Origin: a bacterium
GTDB taxonomy: Bacteria > SAR324 > JACQKK01
Length of the DNA: 64,000 nt
Assembly (NCBI GenBank): GCA_035266845.1
Contig: DATFMP010000103.1
Coordinates: 42,891 to 106,890, forward strand
Direction: 5' to 3'
The notes under the pieces were generated by a model, which saw only the letters and a program-made list of their open reading frames with translations, had not been told where the DNA came from and ran no database searches. Below, in pieces: positions 10,846-23,586 of this stretch. Each line of letters starts with the position of its first letter. Within the stretch, counting starts at the first letter, position 1. Made by a program: the position numbers and the translations under genes.

Positions 10846-11032
10846 CGGACCGCGCCCCGGGCTGCATCCGGCGGCGGCGGTTGCATCCGCGGCCCATTCC
10901 GCTTACGTAATGCGTGTGAGCAACTGCGGTGCCCGGCGTGCGGCGGGAATCTTGCACGCTTCGCCGCAGAGCCGGTCGGCAGGCCCCAGGCCTCCCGGCG
11001 ACGGCCCGCAACGCATCGCACCGGTGATCTCC

Positions 11033-11470
11033 ATGCTCGGCAGACCGCAATCGGCGCTGGGACGCGCCCTCCTGCTTCTGGCGGCCCTGTGGCTGATGGG
11101 CCTGGGCGGCGGCACGGAGGGTGGCGCGGGTTCCAGCATCCCCATCCCGCAGCAGAACTTCACGGTGACGGTCGCGGACCGCTCCGGGCAGTCCCTGGAG
11201 GCCAAGCGCTTCACCTGGGAAGGCAAGGTGGAGTTCCGCGGCCAGATCGGCAACGCCACGGTGAGCCTGCCCTTCAGCAAGGTGAAGTCCGTGCGCGTGC
11301 AGCCGGTCAACGGCGACAAAACGCCGGGCACGGTGAAGGCCACCGTCACGCTGCGCAGCGGTGAATCGGTGGACGTGGGGATCGACCGCACAAGCAAGTG
11401 CTATGGCGAGACGAAGTTCGGCAACTACGAGATCTTCTTCAAGGACGTGGCCAGCATCGACTTCCAGTAG
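11033..11470 (+). CDS. small secreted beta-rich protein
   Basis: Signal-like MLGRPQSALGRALLLLAALWLMGLGGG, then alternating beta-strand pattern. No family recognised. Confidence 0.5.
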   Translation: MLGRPQSALGRALLLLAALWLMGLGGGTEGGAGSSIPIPQQNFTVTVADRSGQSLEAKRFTWEGKVEFRGQIGNATVSLPFSKVKSVRVQPVNGDKTPGTVKATVTLRSGESVDVGIDRTSKCYGETKFGNYEIFFKDVASIDFQ

Positions 11471-11635
11471 CCCCGCCCCCGGTGAGGACACCCGGGCCAC
11501 GGCACCGGTCCGCGCCCGCTTGTGCTCCCCACCGCACTTCGCCTATAGTATTGGATTGCAGGGCCGCCATTGCCGCTGCCGGGCGCAGGAAGCGCCGGGC
11601 GCGGTCACCTCGCGGCCGGCTCTGCCCCGGAATGT

Positions 11636-11726
11636 GGAGAGATGACCGAGCGGTTGAAGGTGCACGCCTGGAAAGCGTGTAGGTGCCAAAAGTGCCTCGA
11701 GGGTTCGAATCCCTCTCTCTCCGCCA
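11636..11726 (+). tRNA. tRNA-Ser (anticodon GGA), CCA encoded
   Basis: Acceptor GGAGAGA/TCTCTCC. Anticodon stem CACGC/GCGTG with loop CTGGAAA. Long variable arm. T-loop GGTTCGAATCC. Confidence 0.9.
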
Positions 11727-11785
11727 CTTCCCCCCGCCAGACTCCCAGATTCGAACGCAAAGACGGCTAAGGGCCGTCGCTGCCC

Positions 11786-12742
11786 CTACTGCTGCCCGGT
11801 CGGCGGCTGCAGCAGCACGGGCTTGAGGTGCTGCGTGAAGAAGGCGGTGAGGCCTGCGCGGTTGAGGTGGTCTGTATCGAAGAAGTGGCCCGGGTCGGTG
11901 GGCACCTGCGAGAAGTCGCGGAAGGGCACATCCCGCTCGGCCAGCAGATGTGCCACGGATTGGTCGAACCTATCCTCGTTGGGCATGAGCTGACGGAACC
12001 GGGCCGGCACGGGCGTCTTGATGACGACCAGCCCCACCCCGCGGGCTCGCACAAAGTCCACGAACGCCGCGAAGTCGCCCAGGTAGCGTGCGAAGGTGCG
12101 GGCGTCCTCCGCGCCGTCCGGGAAGAGATAGTCGATGCGCTTGCGGTCCGCACTGGCCGAGGGACGGTGTACGCGCTCGAACTGCGCCTCGCCCTCCCAG
12201 ATGTCCCGCTGCAGGCGCTCGCGGTTGTTGATCTTGGAGAAGCCCGTCACGTAGTCGAGCAGCGCGCGGGGATCGATACCCTGGCGCAGGGTATAGGCCA
12301 GCAGGCGCTTGGCCACGGCGGCGTCCAGGGGCGTCCGCCGCAGCAGCTTGGCGTCCGCGAAGCGCTCCTCGTTCCAGGCGCGGGAGTGGAACGCGAACGA
12401 ATCGACCACGTAGAGCACGGCGGCGGTCTGGTGGTCTTCCAGGAAGCGCTCCAGCACGAAGCGGTTGTAGATCACGCCGGTACCGGGCGTGGCCAGGTTC
12501 AGGATGCGCCGCCCGGTTTCGCGCTCCATGTAGGCGTTGAAGTCCGCGAAGTCGAAGGGCATCGCGTGGGAGGCGCCCAGGATCACCCAGTCGTAGCGCC
12601 GCTCGGGGGCGGTCACGATCTTGTAGACCGGATTGGTGTCGCCCGTGCGGTACAGCAGGCTCTCCGCGGCCGCGTACAGCCCCGCGTAGAGCACGAGGCC
12701 GATGGCCACGAACAGCAGCGCGGGCTTGGCGAGATGTTTCAT
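11786..12742 (-). CDS. DltD/SGNH-like O-acyltransferase partner protein (N-terminal membrane anchor)
   Basis: Single N-terminal TM segment. ILGASHA near the N-terminus and FDTDHLN near the C-terminus (Ser...Asp-x-x-His arrangement). Sits immediately downstream of the MBOAT gene. Confidence 0.6.
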   Translation of the reverse strand: MKHLAKPALLFVAIGLVLYAGLYAAAESLLYRTGDTNPVYKIVTAPERRYDWVILGASHAMPFDFADFNAYMERETGRRILNLATPGTGVIYNRFVLERFLEDHQTAAVLYVVDSFAFHSRAWNEERFADAKLLRRTPLDAAVAKRLLAYTLRQGIDPRALLDYVTGFSKINNRERLQRDIWEGEAQFERVHRPSASADRKRIDYLFPDGAEDARTFARYLGDFAAFVDFVRARGVGLVVIKTPVPARFRQLMPNEDRFDQSVAHLLAERDVPFRDFSQVPTDPGHFFDTDHLNRAGLTAFFTQHLKPVLLQPPTGQQ

Positions 12743-12800
12743 GGCTGCCTCGTGCCGCAGCGCACCCGCGCATGGCAGGCGCGCAGCGGCGTGGCTCCGC

Positions 12801-14273
12801 TCAGAACTGCATGTAGATGAACTCGCGCGCCTGCCAGCGGCCCAGGATCAGCAGGGCCGCCAGCACCGCGTAGTACGCGGCCCAGCGCACGGCCACCGGC
12901 ATGGCGGCCAAGCGCTCCCACAACGGCCGGCGCTCGTCCAGCACCTCCACCGCCATCAGCAGCGCGATCAGGCACACGGCCTGGAGGTGCGCCACCGTGA
13001 ACGGATAGCGTGTGATCATCGCCGGCATGTGGCCCAAGCCGGTGGCGATGCGCCGCAGCACCAGCAACGCCTGGCTCACCGAGTCCGCGCGGAAGAATAC
13101 CCACGCCACCAGCACCAGGTGGAACGTGAGCAGCACCCGCAGCACCGCCAACACGGGACTGGCCTGCACGCGCGGCATCAGGCCGCCCAGCCGGCGCCAG
13201 AGGGGCGCCGTGGCCAGCCCGACCCACTGGTAGAAGCCGTTCAGGGCGCCCCACACGAGGAACGTCCAGCCCACGCCATAGCCCAGGCCTGCATGCCAAA
13301 GGCCGCTCACGGCAAACACCAGCATCACGTTGGCATAGCGACGCACCTGCCCGGCGCGGCTGCCGCCCAGCGGAATGTACAGGTAGTCGCGGAACCAGTG
13401 CGCCAGCGAGATGTGCCAGCGGTTGCCCCAGAACTCCGCGGTGCTGCGCGAGAGATAGGGCCGGCGGAAGTTCTCCATCAGCTCGATGCCGAACAGGCGC
13501 GAGACCCCGATGGCGATGTCCGTGTAGCCGGAGAAGTCGCAGTAGATCTGGAACGCGAAGAAGTAGGCGCCCAACACCAGCTCCACCGGCGAGATGTAGG
13601 CCGCCAGGTGGAAGCTGCGGTCCACCATGGGCGCCAGATTGTCCGCAATGACGACCTTCTTGAACAGCCCCCACACGATGAGCTGCAGCCCCGCGACGAA
13701 GCGCTCCGGCTCCACGCGCAGCCCCGTGCGCAACTGCGGCAGAAAGCTGGTCGCCCGCTCGATGGGCCCCGCGAAGATCTTGGGGAAGAACGCGACGTAC
13801 AGCGCCAGCTTGCCGGCGTGCCGCTCCGTCGGCAGGCGGCCCGCGTACACGTCCACCAGGTAGCTGACCGCCGAAAAGGCGTAGAACGAAAGCCCGGCGG
13901 GGTTACGCAGGCCCAGCCGCGGCAGGGTCAGGCCCGGCTGCAGGCCCAGCGCCGCCACGCTGAAGCGCTCCAGCTCACCGGCGAGGAAGTCGTAGAACTT
14001 GAATGTGACCAGCAGCCCCAGCACGGCCACCAGCCCCACCACCAGCAACACCCGGCGCAGCCGCGGGCGGTCGGGGAGACCCATGCCCCAGCCGCAACCG
14101 AACACGAGCAGGGTCACCGCGCCCAGGTAGACGGCGTTGACCGGCACCCAGGCCGCATAGAACAGGTAGCTGGCCAACAGCAGCCACGCCCAGCGGTAGC
14201 GCACGGGCAGCAACGCGTGCAGCACCACCGCCAGCGGGAGCAGCGCCAGGAAGCTGAACGAGGTGAACAGCAT
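12801..14273 (-). CDS. MBOAT family membrane O-acyltransferase (AlgI/DltB-like)
   Basis: Polytopic protein. FWGNRWHISLAHWFRDYLYIPLGG contains the conserved MBOAT His region. Confidence 0.85.
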   Translation of the reverse strand: MLFTSFSFLALLPLAVVLHALLPVRYRWAWLLLASYLFYAAWVPVNAVYLGAVTLLVFGCGWGMGLPDRPRLRRVLLVVGLVAVLGLLVTFKFYDFLAGELERFSVAALGLQPGLTLPRLGLRNPAGLSFYAFSAVSYLVDVYAGRLPTERHAGKLALYVAFFPKIFAGPIERATSFLPQLRTGLRVEPERFVAGLQLIVWGLFKKVVIADNLAPMVDRSFHLAAYISPVELVLGAYFFAFQIYCDFSGYTDIAIGVSRLFGIELMENFRRPYLSRSTAEFWGNRWHISLAHWFRDYLYIPLGGSRAGQVRRYANVMLVFAVSGLWHAGLGYGVGWTFLVWGALNGFYQWVGLATAPLWRRLGGLMPRVQASPVLAVLRVLLTFHLVLVAWVFFRADSVSQALLVLRRIATGLGHMPAMITRYPFTVAHLQAVCLIALLMAVEVLDERRPLWERLAAMPVAVRWAAYYAVLAALLILGRWQAREFIYMQF

Positions 14274-14319
14274 GGGGCCCGCCCCGTCAATGCTCTGTCA
14301 AGTCAGGCCGCGCGGGCGA

Positions 14320-14922
14320 TCAGTACGATGCGCCGCCGGCGCGGAGTTCCTCAGGTACCAGGTCTGCCGGAATCCCGGCATTGATCACCAAGTAGCTGGC
14401 CAGGGCCTCGCGCTGTGGCTCCGAGAGCTCGATCTCGATGTGACTGGGCTTGTGCATCGTGCCCAGCCAAGCCGTTTTGGTGCGGGCCTGGGTCACGACC
14501 ACGGTGATGATGTGGCAGAATTGGCAGTTGTTCATCGCCAGGTCGCGCCCGTCCTGCGGCAGCACCTTGCCCCAGTCCGCCTTGGCCAGTTCCGCCGGCA
14601 CCTTGCCCACCGGCAGCGGCATGTTGAACGACAGGTAGTCCGCCAGCGTCAGCAGTTCCTTGTCGCTCAGCGCCTTTAGTGCCGGAAGGGCCCCGGTGCG
14701 TGCCTTCAGGTAGCCCAGCCACTCCTCGCGGGTGTGCTTGCCCGTCAGCAGCGCGCGCACCTCCTGCGCCGGCGGGCGGCTCTGCACCACCTGCGTCAGC
14801 AGCGTCCTGCCCCCGGAGGGGATGAAGGCGAACACGTCCTCCGATTCCGCGGCCTGCGGCTGGCCCAGCGCGCCGACGAGCAGCAGCGCGGCCAGGCAGG
14901 CCCACATGCGCATGGTCTTCAT
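14320..14922 (-). CDS. periplasmic monohaem c-type cytochrome (paralog 2)
   Basis: Signal MKTMRMWACLAALLLVGALGQPQAAE. One CQFCH haem motif. Alignable along its length to the 15054-15617 product. Confidence 0.7.
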   Translation of the reverse strand: MKTMRMWACLAALLLVGALGQPQAAESEDVFAFIPSGGRTLLTQVVQSRPPAQEVRALLTGKHTREEWLGYLKARTGALPALKALSDKELLTLADYLSFNMPLPVGKVPAELAKADWGKVLPQDGRDLAMNNCQFCHIITVVVTQARTKTAWLGTMHKPSHIEIELSEPQREALASYLVINAGIPADLVPEELRAGGASY

Positions 14923-15053
14923 GGCTCTCTCTTCCACACAGGTGCCGCGGCCACACGGCGGCCTCCGCGCGCGCCCCTGGCGCGGAGCAGCGAATCGTGC
15001 GGCGGCGGGCACGGCACGCTGCGCGGCGTGTTGGGCGCCGGCCGGGCTGCGAA

Positions 15054-15617
15054 TCAGAAGCGCAGCTCCGGCGGCACGTCGTCGATCTTCATGGGCATGT
15101 TGATGGCCGAGTAGCGGCTGAACGTCTCCCGCTCCTGCTCGGTCATCGTGATCTCGCGATGGAAGGGCGTCTGGAACTCGGCCTGCCATGCCGCCAAGTC
15201 GCGATCCTGCGTCAGGTATCCGGTGAACAGGGAGTGGCAGAACTGGCACTGGTTCCAGGCCAGCTCGCGCCCGTCCGGCGGCAGGGCATCGCCGATCTTG
15301 CCGGCCTTCCCGGCCGCTTCCAGCACACCTTCCGCCAGCGGCATGTTCACCGCCAGATAAGCGGCCAGCGTGCGCAGCTCCTTATCGCTCAGCGCGGCTT
15401 TGTGGGCGGCCAGCGCCCCGCTCCACTCCTCCTCGGTGTGCTTGGTGGCGGCAATACGGCTCAGCTCCGCCATGTCCGGCGGGCTGCCCAGCACCTGCAG
15501 CAGCAGCGTCTTGCCGCCCTTGGGCATAAACTCGTAGCCTTCCTGCCCCCACGCCGGCAACGCCAGCACCAGGGCGAAGCACACCATCACCGGCACCCAG
15601 CGCCCCTTGCCTCTCAT
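15054..15617 (-). CDS. periplasmic monohaem c-type cytochrome (paralog 1)
   Basis: SD AGGAG. Signal MRGKGRWVPVMVCFALVLALPAWG. One CQFCH motif. Confidence 0.7.
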   Translation of the reverse strand: MRGKGRWVPVMVCFALVLALPAWGQEGYEFMPKGGKTLLLQVLGSPPDMAELSRIAATKHTEEEWSGALAAHKAALSDKELRTLAAYLAVNMPLAEGVLEAAGKAGKIGDALPPDGRELAWNQCQFCHSLFTGYLTQDRDLAAWQAEFQTPFHREITMTEQERETFSRYSAINMPMKIDDVPPELRF

Positions 15618-15637
15618 GGCTCCTCTCGTGCGTCTCG

Positions 15638-15913
15638 TCAGCGTCGCAGGCCGGCATCCAGCGAGAACACCGGCACCCGCAGCTCGGCCTGGGCCCGCTC
15701 GGGCGGGAAGCCCTCGCCCCGCAGCAGGTCGATCCGGGCCACGGTGGAATCGTCGTAGTACTGCTCCTGACAGCGCTCGCAGACCAGCGCGGGAATGTCC
15801 TCGATGACGACCAGCCGGTCGTCGTGCCAGAAGGCCGAGCGCACCCGCTCCTCGCGGAGTGCCCCTTCGCCGCACTGCTCGCAGGTTTGCGCAACAGACT
15901 CGTTCGGCTCCAT
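15638..15913 (-). CDS. YgiT-type zinc-finger protein (MqsA N-terminal-like)
   Basis: CEQCG...x26...CERC pair of CxxC knuckles in a 91-aa protein. Confidence 0.6.
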   Translation of the reverse strand: MEPNESVAQTCEQCGEGALREERVRSAFWHDDRLVVIEDIPALVCERCQEQYYDDSTVARIDLLRGEGFPPERAQAELRVPVFSLDAGLRR

Positions 15914-16092
15914 TGCCCCTCACGCTCCACGTCATGGATTGGAATGCATCGCCGGACGGCCGCGCATACCAAACCCTGCATTGCGCGCCACCGGCGATTG
16001 CCCGGCGAGGCACCGGAAGCCCGGCGCCCCACCGGCAAAACCGGCACGGGCCGAAGCCCGCACCGGCACCGGCTCTCCTGGGCGGTTGCCCG

Positions 16093-17064
16093 TCAGGCGA
16101 GCAGCTTCTTGGCCGCGGCCACCACGTGATCCGCGTTGGGCCGCATCCACAGGAACATCTCCGGCGAGGCCGGGGGCGGCGCATCGGGGAAGGCGATCCG
16201 CTTGAAGCGCGCGCCTTCCACGTTTTCCGCCACCCGCGCGATCACTTCCGCGCCGGGGCACAGGGTGTAGTAGGACTGGTCCACCGTGAGCAGGCGCTTG
16301 GTCTTCTGCACGGACTTGACCAGCGTCTCGGTGTCCATGGGTTTGAGCGACCGCAGGTCGATCGCCTCCACCTTGGCGCCCTGCTTCTGCAGCGTCTCGG
16401 TGGCCTTGAGCACTTCGGGCATGCTGCCGCCCGAGCCGACGATCGTGATGTCGCTGCCCTGCGTGCGCACCGCCGCCTTGTCCAGCGGCGTCTCGAACTG
16501 CGTATCGGGCACGTCTTCCACCATGTTGCGCAGCCCCGCCGGATACAGGTACACCACCGGGTCACGCGAGCGGATGGCGGAGACCATCAGGCCCTTGGCA
16601 TCCGTCGGATTGGACGGGATCACCGTGCGCAATCCGGGGATGTGGGCATAGTACGTGTCGATCTCGTAGTCCGAGTGCTGGCCGGCGAAGCCCGGCGTTT
16701 GCCCGGTCATCTCCAGGATGAACACCACGGGCATTTCCGCCTTGCCGCCGGTCATGTGGCGCAGCTTGCCGGCATGGTTCTGCAGGAGCTGAAATACCAT
16801 GCCGTTGCCTTGGTACGGGATGTAGGTCACGGCCGTCACGCCCGCCAGGCCGGAGCCCAGCACGGCGCCCGTGTACCACATCTCGTCGATGCCGGTGTTG
16901 TTCACCCGGATCCGGCCGAACTCCTTCTCCAGGTTGATCACCGGCTTGCCGGGGTTGGACGCCACAGGAGGCGTCAGTTCGAACAACCACACCATGTCCT
17001 TGCGCTGCCGCATCTCGTATTGCACGGCCTCGAGGACGGAGTACATCCAACTCTTGCGTGCCAT
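16093..17064 (-). CDS. 2-oxoacid/acetoin dehydrogenase E1 component beta subunit (transketolase-like), no signal peptide
   Basis: SD GGAGG. Pyrimidine-binding and transketolase-C type sequence (FGRIRVNNTGIDEMWYTGAVLG, IRSRDPVVYL, GSDITIVGSG). Confidence 0.85.
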   Translation of the reverse strand: MARKSWMYSVLEAVQYEMRQRKDMVWLFELTPPVASNPGKPVINLEKEFGRIRVNNTGIDEMWYTGAVLGSGLAGVTAVTYIPYQGNGMVFQLLQNHAGKLRHMTGGKAEMPVVFILEMTGQTPGFAGQHSDYEIDTYYAHIPGLRTVIPSNPTDAKGLMVSAIRSRDPVVYLYPAGLRNMVEDVPDTQFETPLDKAAVRTQGSDITIVGSGGSMPEVLKATETLQKQGAKVEAIDLRSLKPMDTETLVKSVQKTKRLLTVDQSYYTLCPGAEVIARVAENVEGARFKRIAFPDAPPPASPEMFLWMRPNADHVVAAAKKLLA

Positions 17065-17133
17065 TGAGCTACCTCCACGTCATCTGGGAAGCGTTGCGGC
17101 TGCAACAGCCAGCCGGATCGGTCGACCGATTGC

Positions 17134-18354
17134 CTACGCGAGCTGGCTGGCAGCGACGCTGCCCTCCACGAACACGTTCTTGAGGCCGTCCTCCGGCTTG
17201 CAGAGCGGCTGCTTGTCCGCCCAGGCAAAGGCCGCTCGCGCTTCCGACTTGATGGAGGCCTCGAGCTGGTCGGTCTTGGCACGGTTCATCACGCCCCAGT
17301 TGACCAGGGCGGCACGGAAGATCTCGATCGGGTCGCGAGCCATCCACGCGCGCACCTCGCGTTCCGGTCGGAACGAGGTGATCGCCAGCGGGTCGTAGCC
17401 GAAGGCGCCCAACTGCCCGGGCTTGGCGCCCGGCGCACCCCAGTGGTTGTAGTAGCGGTAGGTCTTGGCCTCGATCAGCGTAGGCCCTTCGCCCGCACGG
17501 GCGCGTGCCACGGCTTCGTGCATGGCGTTGTAGACCTGGATCACATCCTGGCCGTCCACCACCACGCCCGGAATCCCATACGGCTTCGCCGCTTCGGCGA
17601 TGTCCTTCATCGGGGTGGAGTACGAATAGTGCGCGTACTGGTGGTAAAGGTTGTTTTCCAGGATGTAGACAAACGGCAGCTTGAGCAGAGCGGCATTGTT
17701 CAGCGCGCCGTGGAAGGCCGGGGTGGCGTAGGTGCCGTCACCGCCGAACACCACGGAGACCTGCTTGCTGCCCCGTGCGCGGATGCCGAATGCCGAGCCG
17801 GCCGCGATCACCAGTCCCGGGCCGATCATCCCATCGGCACCCATGAAGCCCACGGAGGGATCGGCGATGTGCATTTCCGCCCCATAGCCGCCGTTGAGCC
17901 CGGTGGCACGGAAGTCGTACTCCGCGGCCATCTTCTTGATATCCACGCCCTTGGCGATGGCGTGCCCGGACGGACGGTGCGTGCTGTAGACATAGTCCAC
18001 CTGGTCCAGTCGACCCTTGTTGACCAGGTTGGAGCACACGCCTACCGCCACCGCCTCCTGTCCGGGATAGAAGTGGTTGTAGCCGCGATAGTTCGGCTCG
18101 GTGAGCATCTTGTCCGCCATGGTCCGCTCGAACCACCGAATGCGCAGCATGGTGCCAAACATCTCTGCCAGTTTGTCGTTGCTGAGATCCTTGGCGTAGA
18201 AGCCGATGTTGCCCTGAGCCTTGGCCAGTGAGGCGCCGAACGTGATCGCGGCGCCCGCGCCGGCCAGCCCCTTGATGAAGCCCCTCCGCGTGGTGCGCCC
18301 CATCTTGGTGCTTTGCGTACTGCCGACTGTTTCGGACTGTTTGTTGGTGCCCAT
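17134..18354 (-). CDS. TPP-dependent dehydrogenase E1 component alpha subunit with twin-arginine (Tat) signal peptide
   Basis: SD AAGGAGG lies 4 nt before the ATG. Tat signal GRTTRRGFIKGLAGAGAAITFGASLAKA. TPP motif GGDGTYATPAFHGALNNAALLKLPFVYILENN. Confidence 0.85.
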   Translation of the reverse strand: MGTNKQSETVGSTQSTKMGRTTRRGFIKGLAGAGAAITFGASLAKAQGNIGFYAKDLSNDKLAEMFGTMLRIRWFERTMADKMLTEPNYRGYNHFYPGQEAVAVGVCSNLVNKGRLDQVDYVYSTHRPSGHAIAKGVDIKKMAAEYDFRATGLNGGYGAEMHIADPSVGFMGADGMIGPGLVIAAGSAFGIRARGSKQVSVVFGGDGTYATPAFHGALNNAALLKLPFVYILENNLYHQYAHYSYSTPMKDIAEAAKPYGIPGVVVDGQDVIQVYNAMHEAVARARAGEGPTLIEAKTYRYYNHWGAPGAKPGQLGAFGYDPLAITSFRPEREVRAWMARDPIEIFRAALVNWGVMNRAKTDQLEASIKSEARAAFAWADKQPLCKPEDGLKNVFVEGSVAASQLA

Positions 18355-18907
18355 ATGCCCTCCTTACCCCCCGACCCAAACGGCGCATTTGATTCACCAC
18401 CGTGGCCCGTCTCTGGCGGTACAGAGGCCATACCTTCAGGATACGTGCGGGGGCAGTTGCGTCCTTGATTCAAATCAAATATGGCGATTGAAGACTCATC
18501 AATCATATCCAATACGGAGCCACGGCAGGCGCAGGACGGCGAGGCATCTGCCTCGCGGAGGCCCGCCGGCAAACGCTGGGGAGGATAGGGTGCTGGACGA
18601 AACGCCGTGCGGCTGTAGTTGCGGCACACCGCTGGGGGCGGGCCTCCGGGAAACTGGGCGTCGCGGCCTACGGCGCACGAGTATGGCCGCTACGGCTGCC
18701 GTGACGAGGCCTTCACGGATCCCACTCTGAGCCTGGAGGGTGTGATCGAACGCACAGTGGGATTCGTGACGAGCGAACTGGGCCACCTGCGCGAACAGGC
18801 CACCGCGCTCTCGCGCGAGGCGATCCCCCTGCTGCGGCGCTGGCGGGCTCCCTGGCGCGGGAGCCACGCCGTACTGGCGGCGCCCCCCTGGAACGGGGGC
18901 CGCCGGC

Positions 18908-19708
18908 TCAGGACTTGCGGTCGGGGTAGCTCACGGCGAGGCTGGCCGCCGGGCTGTTCTGCACGCCCCAGGGGGAGATGGGGTAGCGGAAGCCGTTGCG
19001 GCTGAGGCTGGCCAATCCCTCCAGAATTTTCGGCAGGTAGCTGGGCGCGAGCGCGATTAGCATCTCGTCGTCCGCCACACCGCCAAAGCGCCGCTCCGCG
19101 TAACAGGGGATGGAAAGCGAGGGCTCGCCCGTGCTGAGTGCCTTGCCCCAGGAATCCGCGCAGGCGCTCTCTCCCACCACCGTGAACTCCAGCTTCTTGT
19201 AGCCGGTGTACTGCAGGCCGTTGATGAAGAGGATCATCTGCCCGGGCGTGCCGTAGATCAGGCAGATATCCGGATCGGGCAGGCGGCCGGAGACCAGCGG
19301 CGAGACCACCACCGCCTCGTAGTCGCCGTGGGGCGCGCAGTCCATCGCCTCCTGGTGCGCCGCGGCGTCCGGGCCCGTGCCGTACCACACGTTGATCATG
19401 TGCTGGCCACTGAGCCAGTCCTCGCTGCGCGGCGCCAAGCCAATGGGGCGGGCGCATTGGGGCCCTGCGAAGTCGTCCGCGGTCACGCCCACCGTCCAGC
19501 CCAGCAGCCGCGCCTGACCCACCACCTGGTCGAACACCATCTTCTCCGCGGGCCGGCGGATCTTGGGGATGGCCTCCATCTCCGCGCGCGTCTTGAGGCG
19601 CTTCATGCCGATGGGGATGCTGCGCAGCCGCAGGTAGCGGTTCAGCTCCTCCACGATCGCGGGGAAGTCGTAGCCGGCAGTGGACGGAGTGGTGGCGGGC
19701 TCGCTCAT
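18908..19708 (-). CDS. DUF169-like protein
   Basis: SD GAGGA. Overall resemblance to the DUF169/COG2043 family; this is recollection-level and needs an HMM check. Confidence 0.6.
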   Translation of the reverse strand: MSEPATTPSTAGYDFPAIVEELNRYLRLRSIPIGMKRLKTRAEMEAIPKIRRPAEKMVFDQVVGQARLLGWTVGVTADDFAGPQCARPIGLAPRSEDWLSGQHMINVWYGTGPDAAAHQEAMDCAPHGDYEAVVVSPLVSGRLPDPDICLIYGTPGQMILFINGLQYTGYKKLEFTVVGESACADSWGKALSTGEPSLSIPCYAERRFGGVADDEMLIALAPSYLPKILEGLASLSRNGFRYPISPWGVQNSPAASLAVSYPDRKS

Positions 19709-19866
19709 GTCGGATCCTCAAGGGTTCGCAATAGGACTTGCCCCGGCGCTTGAGCGCCGGCCGACCAACAACAGAGGGATGGCGTCAGCCTATGCAATCA
19801 CCCCGCGCCGCGCAAGCGGCCTGGTCCGGCGCCCCGGAGCCACACACGCCTCGGCGTGGCACGGGC

Positions 19867-20754
19867 TCAGCGCCCGAAACGGCGCTGGCGCTGGTGGTAA
19901 TCGCGCAGGGCGCGCAGGAAGTCTATCTTGCGGAAAGCGGGCCAGTACGTATCGCAGAAGTAGAACTCGGAGTACACGGACTGCCACAGCAGGAAGCCGG
20001 ACAGGCGCACCTCGCCGCTGGTGCGGATGATCAGGTCCGGGTCGGGCAGTTCGGAGGTGTACAGGTAGGGCGCGACGCAGCCGGGTTCCAGCGTTTCAGC
20101 AATTTCCGCCACGCTGCGGCCCTTTGCCGCCTGGTCGCGCAGGTAGCGCGAGAAGGCATCGATGATCTCCTCGCGGCCGCCATAGGCCACACCGATGTTC
20201 AGCGTGCGGCGGGTGTAGTGGCAGGTGGCGGCTTCCGCATCGCGGATGGCCTGACGCACGGATTCCGGCAGCACCTCCACCTTGCCCAGCGAGCGCACGC
20301 GGATCTGGTTCTTGTGGATGCGTGGGTGCGTGACCAGTTCCAGGAACTTGCGCTCGAAGAGCTGCATCAGCATGCGCACTTCGGCCGGATCGCGCTTGAA
20401 GTTGTCCAGCGAGAAGATCCAGACCGTGACGACCTGGACGCCCACCTCCTCGCACCAGTTCAGCACGTCCTCCAGCTTGTCCGCCCCGCGCACGTGCCCG
20501 TCCGTCACCCGCAGCAGGTGTTGGTCGCGGGCGAAGCGCCGGTTGCCGTCCATGATGATCCCGATGTGCTGCGGGATGCGCCAGCCGGCCGCGGCGGCGC
20601 TCAGACGTCGCTCATAGATCGCGTAGAACGGGGCCAGCACCAGTCCCCGCAGCCACATGCCCAGCAGCCATGCCGAGGTGGTGACGAGTTCCAGGCGTTT
20701 CCGCCATCGGGCTGGGGAGTCGCTGATGCTGCTCGGAGAAGCCGTCGGATTCAT
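19867..20754 (-). CDS. cis-prenyltransferase (undecaprenyl-diphosphate synthase family) with N-terminal hydrophobic extension
   Basis: IGIIMDGNRRFA, RTSGEVRLSGFLLWQSVYSEFYF. The catalytic core begins about 75 aa after the ATG at 20754. Confidence 0.8.
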   Translation of the reverse strand: MNPTASPSSISDSPARWRKRLELVTTSAWLLGMWLRGLVLAPFYAIYERRLSAAAAGWRIPQHIGIIMDGNRRFARDQHLLRVTDGHVRGADKLEDVLNWCEEVGVQVVTVWIFSLDNFKRDPAEVRMLMQLFERKFLELVTHPRIHKNQIRVRSLGKVEVLPESVRQAIRDAEAATCHYTRRTLNIGVAYGGREEIIDAFSRYLRDQAAKGRSVAEIAETLEPGCVAPYLYTSELPDPDLIIRTSGEVRLSGFLLWQSVYSEFYFCDTYWPAFRKIDFLRALRDYHQRQRRFGR

Positions 20755-20987
20755 CGCGGTGGGGATTGGTGCAGCCGCGGTCCTAGGACACGCGGCGGAG
20801 TGCATCGGGTCTCCGCCCAGCCCGGCGCATGGACAAATCGTATCAGTATACCGGGCCAGGCCCGAAGCTGTCCAGGAAGTGAGCAGGCGGGCGCCGGCCC
20901 GCGCAGCCGTTGCCAAGACACACGGCTTCGCCGTCAACGGGACCGGCGTCTGTCAACCGGATCGCCGCAGGACCGCGGCGGTTCGAG

Positions 20988-22203
20988 TCACGTTCGATTT
21001 GCTTCCAGCCGCTCCAGCGCACTGTGCACGAGGCTGGGCAGGAGGGTGCGGCGAAACGCGATCAGGCCCGGGCGCTCGCCCAGTGCCTTGACGGCGGGCA
21101 CGGCGCGGCAGGCCAGCAGGTAGTCCGTGCGCCCCGCAGCCGCGATCTGCTCCAGCCGTGCTTGCACCAGCGCCGCATCCGGATAGGCGAGGTGCTCCAG
21201 GTACGCGGGCGGTGCACCGGGGTGGTGGAACTCGAAGTCCGGCACCAGGCTGCGGTTGCCGGGCAGCGGCAGCAAGGCCTCGGCCGCGGCCGCGCGCCAG
21301 GGCGAATCCGTCTCGTTGAAGCGCTCCACGAAGCGGCGCACCTCGTCGGAGACCCACTGCCCGTGGTCGGGGTAGTGGCTGCGCAGCCAGGGGTGGGGCT
21401 CCAGCCGCAGCAGGGCGGGCTGGCGGGTCTTGCCCAGCCGCAACTCCGCCTCCAGCCGCCAGGGTTGCTCCCACAGCAGCAGGGCGGGGAAGAATTGCGC
21501 CAGCTCCAGCCCGTAGCGCGTGGCGGAGTCCAGCACGCTCAGGGGGCCGTCCACCACCAGCCACAGCGGCCCGGGCTCCGCACCGGCGTCGGCCGGCACC
21601 TCCTGGCGGAAGAGCAGGCGGTAGAACTTCAGGTAGCGCATCAGTTGCCGCAGCCGGCGCGGCTCCGGCCAGGGCGCCGAGATCGTGACCCGCTCCGCGC
21701 GCAGCAGCAGCCCCTGCACCTGCGCCACGTTGTAGCGATAGGGCAGTTCCTCCGCCCGCAGGGGCTCCAGGGACAGCAGGCGCTGGTGCTCCTCCAGGTC
21801 CGCGAAGAGCGCGGCATCGGCGGCGGCCACGTCCAGGCCCAACGGGGTGGCCGCGCCACCCAGCACGGCGGCGCGCCAGGCAGGCGTGCCCGGCGCCTCG
21901 TCTGAGCGCCATGCCGCCGCCGCGGCATCGAACACGGCTTGGCGCAGCGTCGCCGGATCGGCCGCCGCAGCCACCTCGAACGTGCAGCGCTCCAGCAGCA
22001 GGCGCGCCAACCCCTGCGGGGCGCGGGGCGGCAGAGCGGGGAAGTCCGCGGCACGCAGGGCTTCCTCCAACTCGCCGCGGGGCTGCCCCACGTGGGCCTG
22101 CACCAGCGCCAGCAGGTCCCGTGCCGCCTCGCACGCAGCGGGGGCGGCGGGGTCCAGCAGCCGAGGTTTCACCTGCCCCTGGCGGCGGCGATAGTCCAGC
22201 AGA

Positions 22204-22217
<14 letters not shown>
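20988..22217 (-). CDS. DUF790 / Bax1-like nuclease partner of XPB helicase
   Basis: About 410 aa, starting 14 nt before the stop of the helicase gene. General resemblance to DUF790; recollection-level. Confidence 0.55.

Positions 22218-23586
<1,369 letters not shown>

Follow-up and report, generated by a model that had tools for sequence, protein, structure and literature searches.

The locus analyzed here raises the question of why a TPP-dependent E1 dehydrogenase would carry an export signal, with no E2 or E3 gene beside it and genes for cytochromes c following it. The original prediction answered that it could be a periplasmic TPP enzyme passing electrons to cytochrome c. Comparative evidence supported this answer, and checks on the three findings that were to refute it spoke against none of it; but it was incomplete, having missed genes for an MBOAT-family O-acyltransferase and a DltD-like SGNH protein as well as FNR-type control. 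The two missed genes are as well conserved as the rest, and any mechanism must account for them and for the control.

Extent and conservation of the cassette

All cassette genes lie on the minus strand of the window (the whole 64-kb stretch of DNA analyzed in this study) and are read from 18354 downward. The range 14320-18354 was written from low to high, as for the plus strand. This unit was also too small, as the functional unit reaches 11786, approximately 2.5 kb past its lower coordinate (Table 1). The observations made on the sequence itself were each found in the DNA.

The gene order E1 alpha-E1 beta-zinc finger-cytochrome(-cytochrome)-MBOAT-DltD-like was conserved in 80 genome loci, with single members absent from some, in Alpha-, Beta-, and Gammaproteobacteria, Gemmatimonadota, Myxococcota, and Desulfobacterota (order Deferrisomatales). 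The same order was identified in divergent metagenome clades (L088, L099, L105, L108, L112-L117, and L121). Within positions 1-32000 of the window, no gene outside the cassette was matched by relatives in as many as five of these loci. Directly 3' of the last cassette gene is a terminator-like hairpin with a T-run, adjoined by a tRNA-Ser gene. What has been observed is the gene content with its motifs, its conservation and synteny, and the regulatory box described below.

Table 1. Features of the cassette and its borders (window coordinates)
Feature	Position	Strand	Length	Characteristics
tRNA-Ser gene	11636-11726	+		adjoins terminator-like hairpin
Terminator-like hairpin + T-run	11762-11778	-		directly 3' of last cassette gene
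Conserved cassette	11786-18354	-		E1 alpha, E1 beta, zinc finger, two cytochromes c, MBOAT, DltD-like SGNH
DltD-like SGNH acyltransferase	11786-12742	-	318 aa	membrane-anchored; AlphaFold fold match
MBOAT-family membrane O-acyltransferase	12801-14273	-	490 aa	PF03062 5e-25; C-terminal FIYMQF
Cytochrome c B	14320-14922	-	200 aa	hydrophobic N-terminal signal; single CQFCH; paralogue of A
Cytochrome c A	15054-15617	-	187 aa	Sec-type signal; single CQFCH
YgiT-type zinc-finger protein	15638-15913	-	91 aa	TIGR03831 47.9 bits (cut-off 20.2)
RNA hairpin, then UUUU	16037-16066	-		between E1 beta and zinc-finger gene; folding energy
E1 beta	16093-17064	-	323 aa	PF02780 5e-28; PF02779 5e-12
E1 alpha	17134-18354	-	406 aa	TPP-binding; PF00676 7e-53
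Twin-arginine signal of E1 alpha	18217-18354	-	residues 1-46	N-terminal
FNR/FixK/Dnr-type palindromic box TTGAT-N4-ATCAA	18465-18478			centre ~117 nt upstream of E1 alpha ATG

E1 subunits and the export signal

The assignment of both E1 genes held up in profile searches (Table 1). The start codon of E1 alpha is preceded by AAGGAGG-GCAT, the strong Shine-Dalgarno sequence that had been proposed, and the protein opens, as quoted, with MGTNKQSETVGSTQSTKMGRTTRRGFIKGLAGAGAAITFGASLAKA followed by QG, comprising the motif [ST]-R-R-x-F-[LI]-K, an h-region, and an A-x-A site. The thiamine-binding GDG...NN motif (VFGGDGTY...ILENN) and the catalytic His (YYNHW) are both kept in alignment with solved E1 structures; the loop that follows this His is longer than in those structures and nearly invariant inside this clade. 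The E1 beta gene starts 69 nt past the alpha stop codon (predicted, 70), with GGAGG ahead of it, and its product was 69-91% identical among the 80 loci. Its cofactor-activating Glu (IDEMW) and His (QHSDY) match their positions in the solved structure. Alignment with Geobacillus E1 beta (3duf_B, E = 2e-45) begins at residue 2 without any N-terminal extension and therefore leaves no room for a signal peptide, as predicted; E1 beta is presumed to be exported together with alpha.

It could be objected that the twin-arginine stretch is not functional and that E1 is a cytoplasmic enzyme whose E2 and E3 are encoded elsewhere. The Pfam TAT_signal score of E1 alpha (16.6, under the gathering threshold of 22.7) is in favor of such an annotation artefact, but the NCBIfam Tat-signal model TIGR01409 scored above its cut-off (19.2 vs 16.7). 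Moreover, of the 120 nearest E1 alpha homologues, 118 have the RR motif and the remaining two are N-terminally truncated, and the signal was retained in clades at just 37-55% identity, with motif, h-region, and A-x-A site conserved over clades 37-84% identical. The start at the RR motif is real, contrary to the downstream start that would have refuted the export signal. In one of these divergent clades (L091), tatA-tatB-tatC lies immediately upstream of E1 alpha, and the partner proteins, except for the zinc-finger protein, are extracytoplasmic. Together with the distribution of E2 and E3 given below, these findings leave the objection scarcely tenable.

Absence of E2 and E3

The claim that E2 and E3 are missing was borne out beyond the window. 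No E2/E3 signature motif was found in six frames of the 64-kb window, tblastn of 27 E2 and 9 E3 sequences against it gave no match, and no E2/E3 homologue was identified in 121 Tat-type loci. As controls, 51 loci with signal-less E1 were scanned in the same way, of which 28 had E2 and 12 had E3, while zinc finger, cytochrome, MBOAT, and SGNH genes were found in none (0/51). Among the loci scanned the division was complete, E2 and E3 being found only beside signal-less E1.

Regulatory box and flanking genes

The box upstream of E1 alpha is a perfect one of the FNR/FixK type. It is the single match to the pattern TTGAYNNNNRTCAA in the window, with 0.07 expected by chance. Of 77 related loci, 50 carry the same pattern ahead of E1 alpha, at an upstream distance of 56-143 nt, against a background rate of 0.013 per 110-nt window. 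Additionally, the flanks of the cassette were enriched in universal stress, Hsp20, nitroreductase, CBS, and hibernation-factor genes. The best reading of the box and these flanking genes is that the cassette would be induced by hypoxia.

Dedicated cytochromes c

The two cytochromes share 44% identity (E = 5e-44). Both exist as predicted, but the pair is not a general feature: it is a lineage-specific duplication confined to this clade, and divergent clades carry one. Synteny with E1 in relatives, on which the original prediction depended, was found throughout; of 80 genome loci, 77 have cytochrome A in its syntenic place (in the remaining three the contig stops before it), and a cytochrome c gene lay 3' of E1 beta in all 14 divergent metagenome loci reaching past E1 beta. 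In 76 sequences of cytochrome A, CxxCH and a downstream P-x-H (TPFH) were at least 98% conserved, save the CxxCH His (85-98%), and no Met was conserved; the invariant residues of cytochrome B are C133, Q134, C136, H137, P159, S160, and H161. The conserved downstream His is a candidate for the distal haem ligand, and coordination is probably bis-His. An invariant F-x-P-x-G-G stands at the mature N-terminus of A and B alike.

The family itself is poorly placed. Both cytochromes fell short of Pfam gathering scores, cytochrome A matched only cbb3-type and SorB cytochromes, and these weakly, and the AlphaFold model of B (pLDDT 85.6, all-alpha, two lobes) weakly resembled small class I cytochromes in its haem lobe alone. 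At 90% identity the cytochrome B family forms approximately 1,190 clusters, and none of the 120 listed has a precomputed Pfam family.

E1 by itself reduces ferricyanide or DCPIP in a classic assay, and several homologues carry the source annotation 'acetoin:DCPIP oxidoreductase'. In solved E1 structures, the thiazolium lies at the base of a deep funnel into which the lipoyl arm reaches, and we know of none with an internal relay (FeS or FAD, for example). Electrons may therefore move too slowly to an external haem by direct transfer, and the path would need to be shortened by an unknown mediator or by remodelling of the active-site loop. The funnel and the weak family matches leave room for a non-oxidative enzyme, in which exported E1 would act as a lyase or carboligase, cleaving or forming acyloins or diketones with no net transfer of electrons, and the cytochromes would be general hypoxic carriers merely sharing an FNR-controlled operon; carboligation and acyloin cleavage are both known for TPP enzymes of the E1 fold. 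Generic carriers would not be expected to be so tightly co-inherited, however. Members of the cassette cytochrome family turned up nowhere in this analysis except next to Tat-type E1. They accompany it down to 37% identity, are missing from all the controls, and in one locus (L092) are even found upstream. We thus regard a non-oxidative role as quite improbable.

Zinc-finger protein and intra-operon hairpin

The zinc-finger gene was found 3' of E1 beta in each related locus long enough to show it, even at 37-43% identity (L081, L086, and L088). At least 90% conserved in 94 sequences were CxxC, W, PA-x-x-C-x-x-C-x-E, GF, and VPVF. The protein lacks a signal peptide and is presumed to be cytoplasmic. 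The hairpin ahead of its gene (-34.7 kcal/mol, z-score -5.0; 0 of 200 shuffles folded as well) is a possible intra-operon attenuator or stabiliser, judged from the window alone.

MBOAT and DltD-like SGNH pair

The MBOAT matched DltB structures (E = 2e-23), with NRWHISL aligned to NRWHMSL of DltB, which contains the conserved MBOAT His. All 77 full-length cassette MBOATs end in x-[IV]-Y-x-x-F, the first position being F in 76. In the AlphaFold model of the DltD-like protein (pLDDT 89.5), residues 2-33 form an N-terminal helix. Among solved structures, the model was best matched by those of DltD, 7dxm, 3bma, and 6pfx (E = 1e-7, probability 1.0), followed by SGNH hydrolases and PatB. Its invariant residues, G56-A57-S58-H59 and D289-x-D291-H292, place Ser58 and His292 (plus Asp289 and Asp291) as expected for a putative Ser-His-Asp triad, and a periplasmic orientation is predicted for the catalytic domain. 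The gene was present in 65 of 80 loci. In one variant locus (L086), secreted proteins of isochorismatase-like and metallo-beta-lactamase-fold type accompany E1, zinc finger, and cytochrome, and no MBOAT is seen; the acyl module may therefore be replaceable.

Porcupine, GOAT, and HHAT are eukaryotic MBOATs that acylate secreted proteins near their N-termini. The protein DltX is acylated by DltB (PMC12148441). By analogy, the cassette pair might acylate its own periplasmic protein, for instance in the F-x-P-x-G-G region of a cytochrome, so that a flexible acyl arm replacing lipoyl-lysine enters the E1 funnel and is re-oxidised by the haem. This would solve the distance problem of electron transfer, and the invariant motif at the mature N-terminus of both cytochromes speaks for it, but no acceptor residue (Ser, Thr, Lys, or Cys) is evident as invariant in that motif, and no lipoate or thiol-acid activating gene occurs in the cassette. 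The idea is wholly speculative and very improbable.

The two proteins agree with a mechanism already described: the C-terminal hexapeptide has been shown to carry an acyl-Tyr intermediate in PatA and DltX, and Tyr-shuttle MBOAT machines with a DltD-fold partner take acyl groups from acyl-CoA in the cytoplasm and transfer them outward (PMC12148441). The cassette could accordingly be an envelope-acylation machine working in the canonical direction. Cytoplasmic acetyl- or other acyl-CoA would supply a group that passes first to the C-terminal Tyr, then to the SGNH Ser, and finally to an envelope polymer, lipid, or small molecule, and E1 and cytochrome c would make, trim, or oxidise the same molecule. 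The cassette would then be a hypoxia-specific pathway of envelope or metabolite modification and not an energy-yielding dehydrogenase. Co-inheritance is no less strict for MBOAT and SGNH than for the cytochrome, and the neighbours resemble a stress or dormancy regulon. Nevertheless, polymer-synthesis, glycosyltransferase, and export genes are not conserved beside the cassette, the variant locus retains the E1 part without MBOAT, and no known chemistry leads from an O-acyl ester to the E1 active site. We consider this explanation unlikely.

Proposed function

Our preferred, still tentative reading (probability roughly 0.4), drawn from sequence comparison, is a putative low-oxygen operon for a periplasmic TPP oxidoreductase that would be independent of lipoate, NAD, and E2/E3 and use cytochrome c as electron acceptor. 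No experiment supports any of its steps: that the enzyme is exported, what it acts on, how electrons and acyl groups are routed, and what the zinc finger does are all inferred. Very likely, E1 alpha and beta would assemble with TPP in the cytoplasm and leave as a folded complex on the alpha signal, beta being carried along; the zinc-finger protein probably, by inference, helps assembly or proofreads export. Once in the periplasm, E1 would attack a 2-oxoacid or an acyloin/diketone, pyruvate or acetoin-like compounds being the nearest guesses. It is reasonably likely that the two electrons of hydroxyalkyl-TPP would be transferred singly to the dedicated c-type cytochrome(s), whose haem is probably bis-His, and that these would feed the cytochrome c pool and, through it, a high-affinity oxidase or denitrification enzymes. 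More doubtful is the fate of the acyl-TPP, which the DltD-like SGNH and the Tyr-shuttle MBOAT might resolve, jointly replacing lipoyl-E2, with the acyl group passed to an envelope acceptor or exchanged with cytoplasmic acyl-CoA.

An MBOAT-SGNH pair that takes its acyl group from acyl-TPP would be without precedent, which counts against this reading, as do the weak support for the cytochromes in profile and structural matches and the unclear reason for a supply of 2-oxoacids in the periplasm. No description of a comparable system was found in the searchable literature, and an exported E1 with dedicated cytochromes and an acyl-transfer pair appears to represent a previously undescribed kind of system.

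Extent and distribution of the gene cassette

The E1 alpha gene heads a cassette that also encodes E1 beta, a zinc finger protein, cytochromes A and B, an MBOAT protein, and a DltD-like SGNH protein. This gene order was kept in 80 genome loci wherever the contig was long enough, with the MBOAT gene inverted in one of them (L065). Apart from the cassette, no gene of window 1-32000 had relatives in at least five of the 80 loci, and the commonest flanking family was present in only 18. Because gene order is kept and the flanking genes are not conserved across these loci, the cassette was delimited as window 11786-18354, with its genes all reading in one direction on the minus strand. The original prediction had listed the genes from E1 alpha to the second cytochrome, all of which were confirmed, but it had drawn the unit too small, since the MBOAT and SGNH genes are equally part of it. 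The DUF169 and UppS genes upstream of E1 alpha were also considered as members and were rejected, being conserved in no related locus. A terminator-like hairpin closes the cassette next to a tRNA-Ser gene, which could mark the insertion site of a transferred island, because the flanks of the cassette differ in every genome.

Features of the cassette and its borders in the window
Feature	Position	Strand	Description
FNR/FixK/Dnr box TTGAT-N4-ATCAA	18465-18478		perfect; ~117 nt upstream of E1 alpha start codon
E1 alpha	17134-18354	-	406 aa; PF00676 at 7e-53
E1 beta	16093-17064	-	323 aa; 69 nt after E1 alpha, own GGAGG
Hairpin with UUUU tail, UUCG loop	16037-16066	-	between E1 beta and zinc finger; -34.7 kcal/mol, z = -5
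YgiT-type zinc finger	15638-15913	-	91 aa; TIGR03831 47.9 bits, cut-off 20.2
Cytochrome A	15054-15617	-	187 aa; hydrophobic N-terminal signal, single CQFCH
Cytochrome B	14320-14922	-	200 aa; hydrophobic N-terminal signal, single CQFCH
tRNA-Ser(GGA)	11636-11726	+	just beyond terminator-like hairpin, convergent with cassette

The cassette was identified in the classes Alpha-, Beta-, and Gammaproteobacteria and in the phyla Gemmatimonadota, Myxococcota, and Desulfobacterota (order Deferrisomatales), as well as in peat and soil metagenomes. Isolates carrying it are Ramlibacter lithotrophicus RBP-1, Chelativorans xinjiangense, Roseovarius marisflavi DSM 29327, Marimonas arenosa, and Rhodobacter amnigenus. 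Two cassette-bearing MAG contigs titled 'Flavobacteriales' (L018) and 'Enterobacteriaceae' (L024) are probably mis-binned, because 75-88% identity links their genes to the proteobacterial clade. No cassette copy above 60% identity turned up when the plasmid collection was searched at the protein level.

Divergent loci vary in their downstream genes. A locus only 37% identical (L088) has the order E1 alpha, E1 beta, zinc finger, cytochrome, and MBOAT; L092 has its cytochrome gene upstream of E1 alpha. In L086 (3984-9716), E1 alpha, E1 beta, and the zinc finger are followed by genes for a secreted isochorismatase-like lipoprotein, a cytochrome c lipoprotein, an MBL-fold lipoprotein, and a TlpA-like thiol oxidoreductase, with no MBOAT before the end of the contig. 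The Pro/Thr-rich lipoproteins of this locus suggest a monoderm or Chloroflexi-like host; its zinc-finger gene is absent from the gene calls of the contig, where an opposite-strand ORF had been called instead. In L082 (61-3156), a Tat-signal FAD_binding_2 flavoprotein, split into two ORFs, lies 5' of an E1 alpha with a twin-arginine signal (P0123, 55% identity). This layout hints that the partner in that clade is a flavoprotein rather than a cytochrome, although the contig stops before the downstream genes. Since they are kept across the variants with a Tat-type E1 alpha, we regard E1 alpha, E1 beta, the zinc finger, and cytochrome c as the invariant core. The acyl module, consisting of MBOAT and SGNH, is near-universal but not absolutely so.

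An E1 pair with a conserved Tat signal

The E1 alpha gene has its ATG 4 bases 3' of AAGGAGG, and the N-terminus of its product, TTRRGFIKGLAGAGAAITFGASLAKA|QG, was found exactly as it had been quoted from the sequence. The two arginines are residues 23-24 within TTRRGFIKG, followed by an Ala/Gly-rich h-region and an LAKA|QG cleavage site. The profile models were divided on the proposed Tat signal: the NCBIfam model TIGR01409 scored above its cut-off (19.2, cut-off 16.7), and Pfam TAT_signal remained below (16.6, cut-off 22.7). The motif [ST]-R-R-x-F-[LI]-K occurred at the same place in 118 of the 120 closest E1 alpha homologues (73-84% identity), the two exceptions being N-terminally truncated proteins, and a library-wide search that reached relatives at only 37-55% identity found the signal kept in those inspected (P0123, P0126, P0129-P0131, P0134, P0144, P0152, P0166, and P0170). 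The E1 alpha thus has the features of a Tat substrate, namely the motif, h-region, A-x-A site, and conservation among orthologues, and its signal is, as judged from these alignments, under selection. The below-threshold Pfam score would be compatible with an annotation artefact, a reading that we find scarcely credible beside the repeated motif in distant relatives. One divergent E1 alpha (P0134, 38% identity) has tatA, tatB/E, and tatC directly upstream (L091, 349-2931), as if it had a dedicated translocase.

The mature part of E1 alpha retains the claimed GDG...NN motif for TPP and Mg, of the pattern GDG-X(25-30)-NN (VFGGDGTY...ILENN), which is nearly invariant in 81 sequences. When aligned to 1um9_A, the catalytic His of alpha lies in YYNHW opposite YGPHS. 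The loop after this His exceeds that of solved E1 structures by about 15 residues and is almost invariant within the Tat clade (HWGAPGAKPGQLGAFGYDPLAITSF). In E1 beta, alignment to 3duf_B/1w85_B placed the Glu that activates the aminopyrimidine of TPP in IDEMW opposite LAESG and the catalytic His in QHSDY opposite ELHSD. By these residues, the alpha/beta pair looks catalytically competent. Both subunits scored far below the NCBIfam equivalog cut-offs, with 228 bits for alpha (cut-off 394) and 180 for beta (cut-off 321), and the N-terminal part of E1 beta is clade-specific, unlike that of canonical E1s.

E1 beta had been described as following with its own ribosome-binding site and without a signal peptide, and both points held: the protein is alignable with Geobacillus E1 beta from residue 2, so no signal peptide is left room for. 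We consider it very likely that a TPP-loaded alpha2-beta2 complex would be exported via Tat with beta carried along on the signal of alpha. The same principle applies to HybO/HybC and DmsA/DmsB, in which one subunit bears the signal and a folded, cofactor-loaded oligomer is exported. The hairpin behind the E1 beta gene may be an intra-operon attenuator or mRNA stabiliser, and might set how much E1 is made relative to the proteins encoded after it.

Absence of E2 and E3 from the Tat-type loci

A six-frame motif scan and tblastn detected no E2/E3 motif or homologue in the 64-kb window, in agreement with the original prediction, and no E2/E3 homologue was found across 121 Tat-type loci; copies elsewhere in these genomes are not excluded. 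One E2 pattern match in L021, obtained with a regular expression, was rejected because tblastn gave no confirmation. When metagenomes were scanned with divergent Tat-type E1 alpha sequences as seeds, 29 Tat-type loci were obtained together with 51 loci whose E1 alpha has no signal, the latter serving as a built-in control. An E2 homologue was present in none of the Tat-type loci versus 28 of the 51 controls, and an E3 homologue in none versus 12 of 51. Conversely, the zinc finger and cytochrome c accompanied all 14 Tat-type loci extending beyond E1 beta, MBOAT was found in 12 Tat-type loci, and the DltD-like gene in 10, while the controls had none of these genes (0/51 in each case). The original idea that the cytochrome pair is co-conserved with E1 was therefore upheld for one cytochrome c, and the pair itself belongs to the lineage of the window.

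In four signal-less relatives (P0140, P0162, P0248, and P0266), a lipoyl domain with an ETDKA/QSDKA motif is fused N-terminally to E1 alpha itself, and these unusual fusions contrast with the lipoate-free Tat clade. Among the long relatives in the representative library, N-terminal extensions were either lipoyl domains, in cytoplasmic E1s, or Tat signals, and in none of these relatives was E1 fused to a cytochrome, a zinc finger, or an MBOAT.

The cassette enzyme has the same two-subunit fold as the heterotetrameric E1 of pyruvate, acetoin, and branched-chain complexes (1um9, 1ni4, and 1w85; PF00676 with PF02779/PF02780), and shares with it the GDG..NN motif, the cofactor-activating Glu, and the alpha and beta His residues. 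It differs in the conserved Tat signal, the longer alpha loop, the lack of E2/E3 in the 121 loci, and its partners, which are a cytochrome c, an MBOAT protein, and a DltD-like protein. The cassette thus fails the hallmarks of a dehydrogenase complex, as no E2/E3 is encoded at the loci and the location inferred from the Tat signal is not cytoplasmic.

Cytochromes and zinc finger

The small zinc-finger protein and the two paralogous monohaem cytochromes that had been predicted next to E1 beta are present, and the cytochromes share 44% identity. Both cytochromes start with a Sec-type signal, as read directly from their sequences. The pair is best explained as a lineage-specific duplication, because divergent clades have one cytochrome. 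In cytochrome B, C133, C136, and H137 are invariant in 45 sequences; in 76 sequences of cytochrome A, both Cys residues are at least 98% conserved and the CxxCH His 85-98%. A P-x-H about 25 residues C-terminal to CxxCH is invariant and a Met is not conserved there, which suggests bis-His haem ligation, as far as residue conservation can tell.

The cytochromes fit no curated family well, scoring 17-19 bits against Pfam Cytochrome_CBB3 (cut-off 27) and 17-21 against SorB (cut-off 93). The family comprises about 1,190 clusters at 90% identity, and for the best 120 of these no Pfam family was listed; the source names of the relatives do not go beyond 'hypothetical protein' and 'mono/diheme cytochrome c family protein'. 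The AlphaFold model (pLDDT 85.6) shows two lobes and is entirely alpha-helical. A resemblance to small class I cytochromes is confined to the C-terminal haem lobe and is weak, with Foldseek matches to c553, c555, and c6 (E > 0.1, target-normalised TM-score ~0.5). The top matches to the whole protein were quinohaemoprotein amine dehydrogenase and TsdBA, neither of them strong.

The zinc finger has no signal peptide. Both of its CxxC pairs, W, GF, and VPVF are at least 90% conserved in 94 sequences; the C-terminal 'VPVFS' was considered as a Ser acyl-carrier site and rejected, since the Ser is not conserved. An MqsA-type antitoxin would have a C-terminal HTH domain behind the finger and an adjacent MqsR toxin; the 91-aa protein consists of the finger only, scores 19.5 against TIGR03830 (cut-off 61.8), and has no toxin neighbour. 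Because the gene also adjoins E1 beta at loci without a visible MBOAT, a role together with E1 may be inferred, for instance in assembly or Tat proofreading. FdhE, the proofreading factor of formate dehydrogenase, offers a loose analogy as a metal-binding protein with CxxC...CxxC. The cassette protein, of the YgiT/MqsA-N type, has no homology to FdhE, TorD, or NapD.

The MBOAT-SGNH module

The MBOAT protein matched PF03062 (89 bits, cut-off 27) and the DltB structures, and its catalytic His motif NRWHISL aligned with NRWHMSL of DltB (6bug). It ends in FIYMQF, and x-[IV]-Y-x-x-F is C-terminal in all 77 full-length cassette MBOATs, with F first in 76. In PatA and DltX, the Tyr of the C-terminal hexapeptide bears the acyl intermediate (PMC12148441). 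The DltD-like protein has an N-terminal membrane helix, and its top structural match was DltD (probability 1.0, E = 1e-7), followed by SGNH hydrolases and PatB; sequence-only Pfam matches were sub-threshold. The invariant G-A-S58-H and D289-x-D291-H292 contain the candidates for a Ser-His-Asp triad, and the SGNH family comprises about 1,100-1,200 clusters at 90% identity. DltA and DltC are not among the conserved cassette genes, and nothing else is conserved in the flanks. Given these motifs and the absence of DltA and DltC, this is a genuine MBOAT-SGNH Tyr-shuttle module but no Dlt system. The pair could also be read in a protein-acylation 'prosthetic arm' model, to which we attach very little weight.

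The cassette shares the MBOAT His, the acyl-Tyr shuttle, and a membrane-anchored extracytoplasmic SGNH/DltD-fold partner with Ser, His, and Asp with PatA/PatB, AlgI/AlgJ/AlgX, WssH/WssI, and DltB/DltX/DltD (PMC12148441). Unlike pairs of the PatAB and DltBXD type, it is without DltA, DltC, and polymer-synthesis genes, and the module invariably lies beside an E1 with a Tat signal and a cytochrome c.

Putative low-oxygen control and genomic neighbourhood

The FNR-type box in front of E1 alpha is the sole match in the 64-kb window. Of 77 loci, 50 have a box of this type in front of E1 alpha, at a distance of 56-143 nt, where the background is 0.013 per 110-nt window. The flanks of the genome loci (L001-L080) vary, and recurrent genes encode universal stress, Hsp20, nitroreductase-like, CBS, BON, and ribosome-hibernation proteins, as well as phosphoribosyltransferase, P-type ATPase, and GroEL. 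On account of the box and these stress- and hibernation-type flanks, the cassette can be placed in an FNR/FixK/Dnr low-oxygen response, with induction being inferred rather than observed. As a set, the flanking genes are similar to regulons of hypoxia or dormancy, for example mycobacterial DosR and the Burkholderia lxa locus; a literature check indicated that the lxa locus is without the cassette. Full-text literature searches brought up no FixK or hypoxia regulon containing the cassette.

An Rfam scan of window 11000-20000 yielded the neighbouring tRNA only and no riboswitch, including the TPP riboswitch. Further upstream, the undecaprenyl-diphosphate synthase ORF (window 19867-20937, minus strand; 356 aa) matches its Pfam domain only from residue 128, so that either its true start lies further downstream or some 125 aa extend the N-terminus in an unusual way. 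Next to it (window 20988-23586, minus strand), an XPB/RAD25-type helicase gene with an XPB damage-recognition domain overlaps a DUF790 gene by 50 nt, an archaeal-style XPB-Bax1-like pairing, here in a high-GC bacterium.

Proposed mechanism and comparison with known systems

Once exported, the periplasmic E1 would carry out oxidative decarboxylation or cleavage of an unidentified 2-oxoacid or acyloin. Its electrons would probably pass to the private cytochrome(s) and on to a hypoxic terminal oxidase or denitrification enzymes, a step that we favour with appreciable doubt. Isolated E1 reduces ferricyanide and DCPIP, which provides a chemical precedent. The main difficulty is the deep active-site funnel of E1 without an internal electron relay; this feature would suit a non-oxidative E1, an improbable alternative in view of the cytochrome c found at every Tat-type locus long enough to show it. 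The reverse flow, with cytochrome c reducing acyl-TPP as a hypoxic sink, was rejected on redox potentials (about -0.4 V versus above 0 V).

The concept of an NAD-independent TPP oxidoreductase is shared with PoxB, pyruvate oxidase, and the 2-oxoacid:ferredoxin oxidoreductases, in which hydroxyethyl-TPP gives its electrons to a respiratory or one-electron acceptor and not to lipoamide. These enzymes are cytoplasmic, belong to other TPP families, and have their own FAD or [4Fe-4S] relay, whereas the cassette E1 is without a flavin or FeS domain and would presumably rely on a haem protein of the periplasm, a separate polypeptide, as acceptor. The pairing of a Tat- or Sec-exported enzyme with a small private cytochrome c from a neighbouring gene is known from SorAB sulfite dehydrogenase, PQQ methanol dehydrogenase with cytochrome cL, TsdAB, and quinohaemoprotein amine dehydrogenase. 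In the cassette, the cofactor would be TPP, and the cytochrome, a member of no curated family, carries an additional N-terminal lobe without haem. We know of no TPP-containing periplasmic dehydrogenase, and full-text searches, with subscription-only works outside their reach, brought up no account of a Tat-exported or periplasmic E1 or TPP dehydrogenase. The parts of the cassette come from known families and their combination, on comparative evidence alone, matches no described system.

More tentatively, acyl-TPP might be resolved by the MBOAT and DltD-like proteins, which would together take the place of E2. The main difficulty with this step is that known MBOAT-SGNH pairs transfer outward from acyl-CoA. 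That polarity is the basis of the chief alternative, in which the module would act canonically in a hypoxia-specific acylation pathway and the acceptor would double as the substrate or product of E1. We hold this alternative to be unlikely while keeping it as a serious competitor.

Taken together, at a probability of roughly 0.25, the cassette may constitute a multi-phylum, hypoxic 'outside-the-cytoplasm' analogue of 2-oxoacid dehydrogenases, with cytochrome c in place of E3/NAD and MBOAT-SGNH in place of lipoyl-E2. In that case, periplasmic acyl-TPP and cytoplasmic acyl-CoA would trade acyl groups across the membrane, or the groups would go to an acceptor in the envelope. If true, this would be the first periplasmic TPP enzymology and the first redox-enzyme-linked MBOAT-SGNH pair.

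E1 is taught as a cytoplasmic or mitochondrial enzyme that hands its acyl group to lipoyl-E2, and a large, ancient clade of E1 with a Tat signal and both partners swapped breaks this textbook rule, its export being inferred. The system is testable, since it consists of six or seven genes, a regulator can be predicted, and hosts are in culture. If the proposed mechanism is true, TPP would join the short list of periplasmic redox cofactors, and MBOAT-SGNH shuttles, whose donors and acceptors are often unknown, would gain an unexpected biochemical context. The cassette would also provide a new entry of electrons to the cytochrome c pool in microaerobic or denitrifying bacteria of soil, wetland, and marine environments.
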